Source of the DNA: Escherichia coli | Lineage (GTDB): Bacteria > Pseudomonadota > Gammaproteobacteria > Enterobacterales > Enterobacteriaceae | Length of the DNA stretch: 64,000 nt | Strand: one strand, 5' to 3' | Assembly: GCF_017348835.2 (NCBI RefSeq) | Contig: NZ_CP071375.1 | Shown: positions 33,368 to 35,801 of the stretch, in pieces | Numbering within the stretch: position 1 is the first letter of the stretch | Layout of the letters: every line of letters starts with the position of its first letter | Notes under the pieces: generated by a model | What the model was told of the DNA's origin: nothing | Seen by the model: the letters and a program-made list of their open reading frames with translations, nothing else | Databases searched by the model: none | Position numbers and translations under genes: made by a program

Positions 33368-33751
33368 ATGAAGCTGACCATCATTCGATTAGAAAAATTT
33401 AGCGACCAGGACCGGATTGACCTGCAAAAGATCTGGCCGGAGTATTCCCCTTCCTCTTTACAGGTTGACGATAACCACCGCATCTACGCCGCACGTTTCA
33501 ACGAGCGCCTGCTTGCTGCTGTACGCGTAACCTTGAGCGGCACCGGGGGGGCACTGGATTCTCTGCGCGTGCGGGAAGTCACCCGACGTCGCGGCGTGGG
33601 GCAATATCTGCTGGAAGAGGTGTTAAGTGATAATGCCAGCGTTTCATCCTGGTGGATGGCGGATGCAGGCGTAGAAGATCGCGGTGTGATGACGGCGTTT
33701 ATGCAGGCACTGGGATTTACGGCACAGCAGGGCGGCTGGGAGAAGCGTTAA
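33368..33751 (+). CDS. panM: PanD maturation factor PanM/PanZ (GNAT-like)
   Basis: 127 aa MKLTIIRLEKFSDQDRIDLQKIWPEY... Confidence 0.88.
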   Translation: MKLTIIRLEKFSDQDRIDLQKIWPEYSPSSLQVDDNHRIYAARFNERLLAAVRVTLSGTGGALDSLRVREVTRRRGVGQYLLEEVLSDNASVSSWWMADAGVEDRGVMTAFMQALGFTAQQGGWEKR

Positions 33752-34275
33752 TCGCTCTGTGTAAAAAGCAGTTCAATGGATTTGGTTGGGAAAAATAACG
33801 CATTTTCGTTTTCCCCGACTAAAGGGATAAAGCCCAGCGATTTATAAAACGTATGGGCTTTTTCATTCAGCGCCTCGACAAAAAGACCGTGAATACCTAC
33901 CGCTAAAGAGGCTGACCAGACGACTTTCATGGCATGAGCAACCAGTGTTGCTCCCCATCCCTGCCCCTGTAATGAACGATCAATTGCCAGACGCCCAAGA
34001 GTGACGCTGGGAATATTTTTGTAGGGAATTTTTTTCTGTTTCGATTTCGAGGGCAATGCGGCTCGTTCAAAACAACTGCCGGATAATGTGTAATATCCCA
34101 GCACCTGACGTTCTGGAGTGTTGCGACAAAGGATATACGCTCGCAGAATTTTGTTGCGATGTTGACGAACGAGATGTGTCGTCAGAAAGAGATTTAACGC
34201 TTCCTCGCCGCAGTCGAATCGCTGTAGATCATAATCTGCATCATCGGTCAGAATCTCTATCGTCAGATCATCCAT
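33748..34275 (-). CDS. ataT: GNAT-family acetyltransferase toxin (AtaT/ItaT/TacT-like tRNA-acetylating toxin)
   Basis: 175 aa MDDLTIEILTDDADYDLQRFDCGEEALNLFL...; lies directly downstream of a DUF1778 antitoxin gene; 4-bp convergent overlap with panM. Confidence 0.7.
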   Translation of the reverse strand: MDDLTIEILTDDADYDLQRFDCGEEALNLFLTTHLVRQHRNKILRAYILCRNTPERQVLGYYTLSGSCFERAALPSKSKQKKIPYKNIPSVTLGRLAIDRSLQGQGWGATLVAHAMKVVWSASLAVGIHGLFVEALNEKAHTFYKSLGFIPLVGENENALFFPTKSIELLFTQSD

Positions 34276-34281
34276 AAATTA

Positions 34282-34548
34282 TTACATTCCCTGAAGACGT
34301 TTTGCCGCACGTTTTAGCTTTTCACCTGGTGACGGTGGATTACTCAGCGCATCCATCACCCGCATCCAGGATTCCTCATTGAGGATCACCCGCCGATGTT
34401 GTTCAATCACTTCCGCAGCCCGCTGCGAAGCGCTGTTCAACATAAATTGGCTGACGGACTGATTAGATATCGCTGCCGCTTCCTCAATCATACTTTTGTC
34501 ATCGTCAGTTAAACGCAGATCGATACGCTGCTTTTTAACAGCAGACAT
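34282..34548 (-). CDS. ataR: DUF1778 (RHH) antitoxin of GNAT toxin (AtaR-like)
   Basis: 88 aa MSAVKKQRIDLRLTDDDKSMIEEAAAISNQSVSQFMLNSA...; ribbon-helix-helix N-terminus; AGGAG SD. Confidence 0.7.
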   Translation of the reverse strand: MSAVKKQRIDLRLTDDDKSMIEEAAAISNQSVSQFMLNSASQRAAEVIEQHRRVILNEESWMRVMDALSNPPSPGEKLKRAAKRLQGM

Positions 34549-34563
34549 GTGAACTCTCCTGCT

Positions 34564-34594
34564 CCGTATAATATGTACGGCATATCACCGTACA
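34564..34594 (-). promoter_or_regulatory. Putative ataRT promoter/operator: interlocking inverted repeats CCGTA..TACGG..CCGTAC
   Basis: ccgtataatatgtacgg and gtacggcatatcaccgtac overlapping a TATAAT-like -10 immediately upstream of the antitoxin start. Confidence 0.45.
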
Positions 34595-34645
34595 ATAAGC
34601 ATATCCTGGATTGTTTAATCTTTCTACAACCATTTCGACAAACAC

Positions 34646-34678
34646 AAAAAAACCCGATGGACGTTAAGCGCACCGGGC
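34646..34678 (-). terminator. Intrinsic terminator of livJ
   Basis: Minus-strand RNA hairpin CCCGGUG...CAUCGGG followed by U7, 20 nt after the livJ stop. Confidence 0.7.
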
Positions 34679-34697
34679 ATTTTCATTTATCTAACAA

Positions 34698-35801
34698 TTA
34701 CTTCGCATCGGTCGCCGTGCCGTTGGCGTGCCAGTCAAATACGCCGAACTCAAAGCCTTTCAGATCGCCTTTCTCATCCCAGGTCAGCGGTCCCATTACG
34801 GTATCCACGGAGTTCGCTTTCAGGTATTTGGCGATTTCAGCCGGATCGTCAGACTGATTCAGGCCCGCCTGCAAAGATTGCAGCGCGGCGTAGGTGGTCC
34901 AGACGAATGCGCCGCTTGGGTCCTGTTTTTTCGCTTTGATCGCATCAACAATGGGTTTGTTCGCCGGAACCTGATCGTAGTTCTTCGGCTTGGTCACCAG
35001 CAGCCCTTCCGCTGATTCGCCCGCAATGTTAGACAGCGAAACGTTAGCCACACCTTCCGGCCCCATAAACTGAGTTTTCAGCCCTGCCGCGCGTGCCTGA
35101 CGCAGGATTTGCCCCATTTCCGGGTGATAACCGCCGTAGTAAACGAAGTCGATATTCTCTTTTTTCAGACGCGCCACCAGCGTTGAGAAATCTTTTTCCC
35201 CGGCGGTGATACCATCAAAGAACACCACGTTAGCATTGCCTTTCTTCAGGCCGTCCTGCACCGCTCGCGCCAGACCTTCGCCGTATTGCTGTTTGTCGTG
35301 AACGATAGCAATACGCTGCGGTTTCACTTTCTCAAGAATATATTTCGCCGCCGTCGGCCCCTGGTCGGAGTCCAGGCCGGTGGTGCGCAGGATCAGCTGA
35401 TAGCCACGGGCGGTCAGCTCCGGCGCGGTTGCCGCTGGGGTGATCATTAAAATGCCTTCGTCTTCGTAGATGTCAGACGCAGGCTGCGTTGATGAAGAAC
35501 AGAGGTGACCAATCACGTATTTAATGCCGTCGTTAACGACTTTGTTCGCCACCGCAACCGCCTGTTTCGGGTCACAGGCATCGTCATATTTTACGATTTG
35601 CAGTTTGTTGCCTTTAATGCCGCCTTTAGCGTTGATATCCGCAACCGCCTGCTCTGCGCCGGTAAACTCCTGGTCACCGTACTGCGCAACCGGACCGGAC
35701 ATTGCGCCCACGACCGCGACTTTAATATCTTCTGCCAGAGCCATATTGCTGAATGCCAGCGCGATACATCCTGCCAGTAACGCTTTACCCTTTATGTTCA
35801 T
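34698..35801 (-). CDS. livJ: Leu/Ile/Val periplasmic binding protein LivJ
   Basis: Track ORF to 35858; conserved start [23 protein letters not shown] at 35801. Confidence 0.9.

Follow-up and report, generated by a model that had tools for sequence, protein, structure and literature searches.

A conserved palindrome upstream of ataR as the very probable operator of the Escherichia coli ataRT module, with an overlapping second repeat confined to E. coli

Introduction

The ataRT toxin-antitoxin module of Escherichia coli raises the question of how many operators lie in front of its antitoxin gene, and where they stand in relation to the promoter. In the 64-kb stretch of E. coli DNA analysed here (hereafter, the window), the + strand reads CCGTATAATATGTACGGCATATCACCGTACA at positions 34564-34594 (direct read), a segment in which CCGTA (34564-68), TACGG (34576-80) and again CCGTA (34588-92) build two overlapping inverted repeats, CCGTA-N7-TACGG and GTACGG-N7-CCGTAC, that share their central arm. 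The original prediction described these repeats exactly, as the reading of the + strand confirms, and interpreted them as tandem, interlocking palindromes laid across a TATAAT-like promoter element and serving as the autoregulatory operator of an RHH antitoxin. Each of these propositions can be addressed by comparing the locus with its homologues and with a structurally characterized relative.

The existence of an operator in ataRT and kacAT, and its repression by an antitoxin-toxin heterohexamer, are already known structurally and biochemically. The binding of AtaR4AtaT2, its stoichiometry and the derepression of ataRT are taken here from the literature: a 4:2 AtaR:AtaT complex represses the operon and is released by an excess of AtaT, and free AtaR or KacA is insufficient for repression (reviews including PMC10776004). 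A statement in PMC6698736 indicates that the AtaRT heterohexamer has been solved on a palindromic operator sequence at 3.36 Å.

The ataRT locus

The genes and signals surrounding the repeats are the following.

33748..34275, − strand: ataT, GNAT acetyltransferase toxin and co-repressor within AtaR4AtaT2 (GNAT domains; RefSeq annotation ataT)
34282..34548, − strand: ataR, RHH antitoxin of family PF08681 (TacA1-like/DUF1778; E 8.6e-26; RefSeq annotation ataR)
34556..34560, − strand: AGGAG, the ataR Shine-Dalgarno sequence, at a distance of 7 nt from the ATG (direct read; kept in all Escherichia alleles)
34646..34677, − strand: likely livJ terminator, hairpin CCCGGTG...CATCGGG followed by a run of seven T, directly after livJ (direct read)

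Over 1 kb, this region matches, at 96-100% identity, the chromosomal panM-livJ locus that carries the annotation ataR/ataT in 1,612 complete E. coli genomes out of 5,426. The assignment of ataR to the RHH antitoxins, already made in the original prediction, is supported both by its match to PF08681 and by the identity of its product to the crystallised AtaR (PDB 6AJM/6GTO/6GTS) at 87 of 88 positions; residue 62 is a methionine in the window and a threonine in the crystallised protein. On the livJ side, the hairpin is conserved among Escherichia loci, and it is likely the livJ terminator, separating ataRT from upstream transcription. Our terminator scan missed it, as its loop is 11 nt as read and the scan accepted a maximum of 8.

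The module is a presence/absence polymorphism in E. coli, being found in 1,613 of the 5,426 complete genomes, always between panM and livJ and never on a plasmid. The panM-livJ spacer of one genome without ataRT (L055:1253-1451) holds REP-like palindromic repeats. In the window, panM (+ strand, ending at 33751) and ataT (− strand, ending at 33748) are convergent and overlap by 4 nt at their stop codons, leaving no room for a terminator between them. The promoter allele of the window is rare, as at least 99% identity over 78 nt (34549-34626) was observed in 12 of the 1613 genomes; most of these genomes carry an O157:H7-type promoter allele, with 3 differences from the window. Another E. coli allele (L047) displays a better -10 (TATGAT) and a linker to the operator that is 1 nt shorter. 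In E. coli HH97 (L053:121-292), ataR is a frameshifted, truncated pseudogene, but its operator and promoter are intact, as is the third half-site discussed below; decay of the ataRT module evidently begins with the coding sequence.

A palindrome matching the crystallised KacAT operator

34574..34594, no strand assigned: core operator TGTACGG-N7-CCGTACA (perfect 7-nt arms; matches the KacAT crystal operator; 47/47 chromosomal and 3 plasmid loci)

The distal of the two repeats has arms of 7 nt that are 100% complementary (TGTACGG, 34574-80, and CCGTACA, 34588-94), and 45 nt separate the start of the palindrome from the ATG of ataR. The palindrome is located directly upstream of a gene for a DUF1778 antitoxin, after which comes the gene for a GNAT toxin. 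The KacA4KacT2 heterohexamer of Klebsiella pneumoniae was crystallised on AAATGTACGGTTATTAACCGTACATGA (PDB 5ZGN; PMC6698736), and positions 34574-94 of the window present the same 7-nt arms and the same N7 spacing as this duplex, that is, two inverted GTACGG hexamers 7 bp apart. In the KacAT-DNA complex, the contacts R12-G5, D10-C8 and R8-G9/G20 define the GTACGG hexamer, one per RHH dimer: R12 of KacA recognises the first G and D10 the C, R8 reads the Gs in the CpG step, and DNA binding is abolished in the R8A or R12A mutants (PMC6698736). AtaR carries the same three residues on β-strand 1 (KKQRIDLRL), and R8, D10 and R12 are invariant in an alignment of 12 AtaR homologues of 74-100% identity. 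A full-text search with the operator sequence matched only the KacAT paper (PMC6698736).

Within the window, each of the two repeat patterns occurs a single time. Dinucleotide-preserving shuffles gave chance expectations of 0.06 for GTACGG-N7-CCGTAC with at most one mismatch, 0.03 for the exact CCGTA-N7-TACGG, and 0.11 for the pattern of three half-sites with at most two mismatches. The strongest evidence against chance for the distal palindrome is nonetheless comparative, because it is present in all homologous chromosomal loci. Our sample comprised 44 species loci with AtaR relatives of 53-99% identity which, together with the E. coli alleles, amounted to 47 chromosomal loci. GTACGG-N7-CCGTAC was found exactly once upstream of the antitoxin start in 47/47 of them, at a distance of 33-141 nt, ruling out a chance origin of the main palindrome. 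In the palindrome-anchored alignment, the arms reach 2.0 bits at all 12 positions, and the spacer varies, with an A/T content of 93%; within E. coli alone, there are four spacer alleles with unchanged arms. The arms being invariant, with no compensatory change, they therefore fit a protein-binding site and do not fit an RNA stem. The conservation extends from orthologous to paralogous operons, as GTACGG-N7-CCGTAC was also present in the three plasmid homologues of at least 46% identity (76%, 69% and 46%). It was not found upstream of plasmid homologues of 31-35% identity. The comparison thus shows that the operator arms are invariant over at least 44 enterobacterial species plus plasmids.

From these sequence comparisons, the 21-bp palindrome at 34574-34594 is very probably the operator of ataRT, located at the likely start site and bound by the AtaR-AtaT heterohexamer. 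The autoregulatory operator that had been proposed for this region can be retained for the distal palindrome, with its KacAT-identical arms and spacing and the invariant R8/D10/R12, and is not supported for the second repeat, as detailed below.

Position of the promoter

34598..34603, − strand: likely -10 TATGCT, ending 4 nt before GTACGG (positional homology to the family consensus)
34621..34626, − strand: likely -35 TAGAAA, 17 nt upstream of TATGCT (aligns with the family TTGAAA)
34567..34572, + strand: TATAAT hexamer (direct read; strand opposite to ataR)

Motif scores alone do not point to a single ataRT promoter. A default promoter/terminator scan of 34200-34900 on both strands, with a threshold of 9/12, yielded no site. 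The pair TAGAAA/TATGCT is weak, at 8/12, and two other candidates in the window score about alike, TCGAAA-N17-AACAAT (8/12) and TTGTAC-N16-TATTAT (8/12, or 7.5 after a penalty of 0.5 for the 16-nt spacer). When the 44 species were anchored on the palindrome, a conserved sigma-70 promoter emerged upstream of it, with the family consensus TTGAAA-N17-TAnnnT-N4-GTACGG. An unbiased scan covered -10 positions within 25 nt on the upstream side and 45 nt on the downstream side of the start of the palindrome. In 28 of the 47 loci, the best -10 stopped 4 nt short of the palindrome, in 40 it stopped 1-5 nt short, and outside Escherichia it was never located inside or beyond the palindrome. By positional homology, the ataRT promoter is probably TAGAAA-N17-TATGCT, which would set the start at about 34591, inside the distal arm. 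About 4 nt would then lie between this -10 and the palindrome, so that the operator would cover the likely transcription start. This predicted layout agrees with that of kacAT, in which the palindrome spans the transcription start site (PMC6698736). The literature searched, in which the primary AtaRT-DNA papers were not covered, contained neither transcription-start data for ataRT nor a report of a second palindrome.

In the original prediction, the repeats extended across a TATAAT-like promoter element. Such a TATAAT does exist at 34567-72 but on the + strand, whereas ataR is encoded on the − strand and the conserved promoter lies upstream of the palindrome. As a sigma-70 -10 element, it is neither on the right strand nor preceded by a -35 at 16-18 bp, since the direct read of the + strand upstream of it shows no -35-like hexamer. 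A divergent promoter using this TATAAT is likewise ruled out, as it would have no -35 and nothing to transcribe but livJ antisense. The annotation of the region should therefore be corrected to one conserved palindrome, with the probable promoter upstream of it and the TATAAT on the wrong strand.

A different way of placing the repeats across the core promoter would be to read the same bases on the ataR strand, where they give ATTATA/TATTAT and where the overlapping hexamer TATTAT (34568-73), between half-sites 2 and 3, could act as the -10 of a promoter whose -35, TTGTAC, lies in the distal arm. TATTAT agrees with TATAAT in 5 of 6 positions, and the score of the pair is approximately equal to that of the alternative. 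We nevertheless consider this arrangement unlikely. Its -35 varies within E. coli, being ATGTAC (2/6) in O157:H7 (L001) and in the alleles L002 and L047, and transcripts from it would begin only some 15 nt from the ATG, at the border of the Shine-Dalgarno sequence. Moreover, in no other species is the best -10 inside or downstream of the palindrome; E. whittamii is devoid of TATTAT, and the exact TATAAT lies on the other strand. The promoter upstream of the palindrome is thus the reading that we retain in the following sections.

The third half-site

34564..34568, no strand assigned: third, promoter-proximal half-site TACGG (ataR strand; hexamer ATACGG), in E. coli alleles only

The second repeat of the original prediction depends on this third half-site. 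It is intact in the 8/8 E. coli alleles that were read, including the locus with the ataR pseudogene, and the 53-nt segment that runs from the palindrome up to the ataR start shows at most two mismatches in 1612 of 1613 genomes. Beyond E. coli, the picture is different. The same genomic position reads TATGG in E. albertii (L004) and TAAGT in E. whittamii (L005), and the few changes that distinguish the 31-nt leaders of the Escherichia species are concentrated exactly at this half-site. None of the 40+ homologous loci outside E. coli shows a half-site at this phase, and there is no enrichment for additional half-sites around the palindrome (3 in 40 loci). The hexamer itself is imperfect: in ATACGG, an A replaces the first G, the base that R12 contacts and that none of the 88+ arms lacks. 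Finally, the CpG centres of the three half-sites (34565.5, 34578.5 and 34589.5) are separated by 13 and 11 bp. The second repeat consequently has neither the half-site sequence and centre spacing of a tandem operator (ATACGG; 13 vs 11 bp) nor conservation in homologous promoters, and the notion of tandem or interlocking palindromes is not supported for this locus.

A functional alternative can still be formulated, in which the ataRT promoter region would be an alternating double operator, the third half-site allowing one more AtaR dimer, or the complex in a second register, to bind across TATTAT and thereby, by analogy with the mazEF promoter, extending or tuning repression in E. coli. The three pentamers are indeed spaced exactly N7/N7, and the probability of a phased third pentamer arising by chance is about 0.002 per locus (2 positions × 1/1024); the presence of the site in all 8 E. 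coli alleles, the near-identity of the 53-nt segment in the 1612 genomes and the precedent of an alternating palindrome in a toxin-antitoxin promoter also speak for it. However, across the approximately 41 independent lineages considered, one phased pentamer is expected by chance with a probability of about 0.08, and the site is absent outside E. coli and mutated in both sister species. It also lacks the invariant first G, and its centre is 13 bp away, instead of the 11 bp (one turn, same face) of the true pair. With this 13-bp spacing and with hexamers that face outward, the heterohexamer therefore cannot dock in the same way on the second repeat. We regard a double operator as quite improbable.

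Most likely, the third half-site is either a coincidence or a weak auxiliary site, its lack of function being deduced from the sequence comparisons above, although its fixation in E. coli is compatible with function. It seems rather improbable that E. coli recently gained, between the operator and the Shine-Dalgarno sequence, an imperfect third half-site for AtaR or, alternatively, a small hairpin of the leader that uses the proximal arm of the operator. If such a gain were true, it would represent a species-specific extra control of the ataRT promoter, absent from the Klebsiella system that has been studied, for example another register in which free AtaR or non-repressing complexes could bind. 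This raises a small and cheaply testable question, namely, whether repression is altered by the E. coli-only third half-site.

Hairpins in the leader

The proximal repeat could also act in the RNA. CCGUA-N7-UACGG would then form a small hairpin in the 5′ leader of ataRT, 3 nt upstream of the Shine-Dalgarno sequence, and would be the E. coli counterpart of a hairpin that precedes the Shine-Dalgarno sequence in homologues with a long leader. These latter hairpins are located as follows.

L016:1431-1503, L019:1431-1503, L020:738-810, L023:1431-1503 and about 20 further loci: long-leader hairpin, stable, ending at the antitoxin Shine-Dalgarno sequence
L035:728-800, L042:1431-1503, L048:831-903 and L049:831-903: long-leader hairpin, stable, ending at the antitoxin Shine-Dalgarno sequence

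In 28 long-leader loci, the 40 nt before the Shine-Dalgarno sequence fold better than shuffled sequences (mean z of -2.0; 19/28 below -1.5), and in an alignment of 8 sequences, 8 of the 10 pairs of the stem display compensatory changes. No Rfam family matches the homologous leaders. The long-leader hairpin could affect mRNA stability or translation.

That long-leader homologues carry a hairpin abutting the Shine-Dalgarno sequence, that the E. coli repeat occupies the equivalent position, and that RNAfold draws a 4-bp stem there are in favor of a leader hairpin in E. coli. Nevertheless, the E. coli stem would have only 4-5 bp; the minimum-energy structure of the leader pairs other bases, and the whole leader has a z of -1.05 relative to shuffles, 24 of 200 of which fold at least as well. 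Moreover, the hairpin is missing in E. albertii and E. whittamii, as well as in 11 other short-leader homologues. Both the formation of such a hairpin in E. coli and its correspondence to the long-leader structure are, in our opinion, highly improbable. The short-leader loci, E. coli included, are devoid of the long-leader hairpin.

Proposed mechanism of repression

Taking the distal palindrome as the operator, repression of ataRT would proceed as follows. Two AtaR RHH dimers would be kept in register by two AtaT monomers in an AtaT-AtaR2-AtaR2-AtaT heterohexamer, and the β-sheet of each AtaR dimer would enter the major groove at one of the GTACGG hexamers. One helical turn (11 bp) would separate the sites of the two dimers, with the minor groove compressed at the A/T-rich spacer between them. 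As about 4 nt separate the likely -10 TATGCT from the operator downstream of it, the bound complex would lie over the likely start and block initiation. An excess of AtaT would alter the stoichiometry of the complex, leading to the release of the DNA.

Plasmid-borne homologues

Plasmid modules of the AtaR family (L048:700-903, L049:700-903 and L050:700-903) share the operator GTACGG-N7-CCGTAC with the chromosomal ataRT, and 728 plasmid records match, 277 of them from Escherichia. The DNA-reading residues are kept in the plasmid AtaR homologues as R-x-D/E-x-R. Having the same operator and conserved reading residues, a chromosomal and a plasmid module that reside in one cell should be able to repress each other's promoters. 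Cross-neutralisation between chromosomal and plasmid modules (“anti-addiction”) is reported in the literature, and the cross-repression predicted from these sequences should add a transcriptional layer to it.

A more distant homologue, on a Rhizobium plasmid (L052:700-867, 35% identity), lacks the full palindrome and shows tcCCGG-N7-CCGTACa about 30 nt before its start codon, together with a β-strand reading R-L-E-T-R. Judging from its sequence, this element may be a diverged form of the same operator.

Comparison with known systems

One of the closest described relatives of the ataRT operator is that of kacAT in K. pneumoniae (5ZGN; Qian et al., 2019, PMC6698736). The 7-nt arms are identical, the spacer is likewise a 7-bp A/T-rich segment, and both systems are operons of a GNAT toxin and a DUF1778 antitoxin whose RHH β-strand presents R8/D10/R12. 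The palindrome of kacAT is also located just downstream of a -10 (L034: TATATT-aaat-GTACGG). The two systems differ in the spacer sequence (ataRT vs kacAT: CATATCA, + strand, vs TTATTAA), and E. coli ataRT has a shorter leader and an extra TACGG 7 bp downstream that is missing in Klebsiella.

The ataRT operon of E. coli O157:H7 (L001) comprises the same genes at the same locus as in the window, with promoter differences at 3/78 nt, none of them in the arms or in the third half-site. An AtaR-AtaT-DNA structure was reportedly obtained for this system by Jurenas, Van Melderen and Garcia-Pino in 2019 (Nat Chem Biol 15:285). An alternating palindrome is likewise said to have been described by Marianovsky et al. 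in 2001 in the E. coli mazEF promoter. In this toxin-antitoxin promoter, overlapping inverted repeats share a central arm, which is the arrangement that had been proposed earlier for ataRT. In contrast to mazEF, only one of the two ataRT repeats is conserved and matches a structurally defined site, and the second has another spacing and an imperfect hexamer.

Finally, the operators of CopG/RelB/ParD-type RHH proteins resemble that of ataRT in that two dimers in contact with each other occupy neighbouring major grooves, at a distance of about one turn, and in that repression depends on the toxin:antitoxin ratio (PMC10776004). In ataRT and kacAT, by contrast, the toxin bridges both antitoxin dimers and is required for high-affinity binding.
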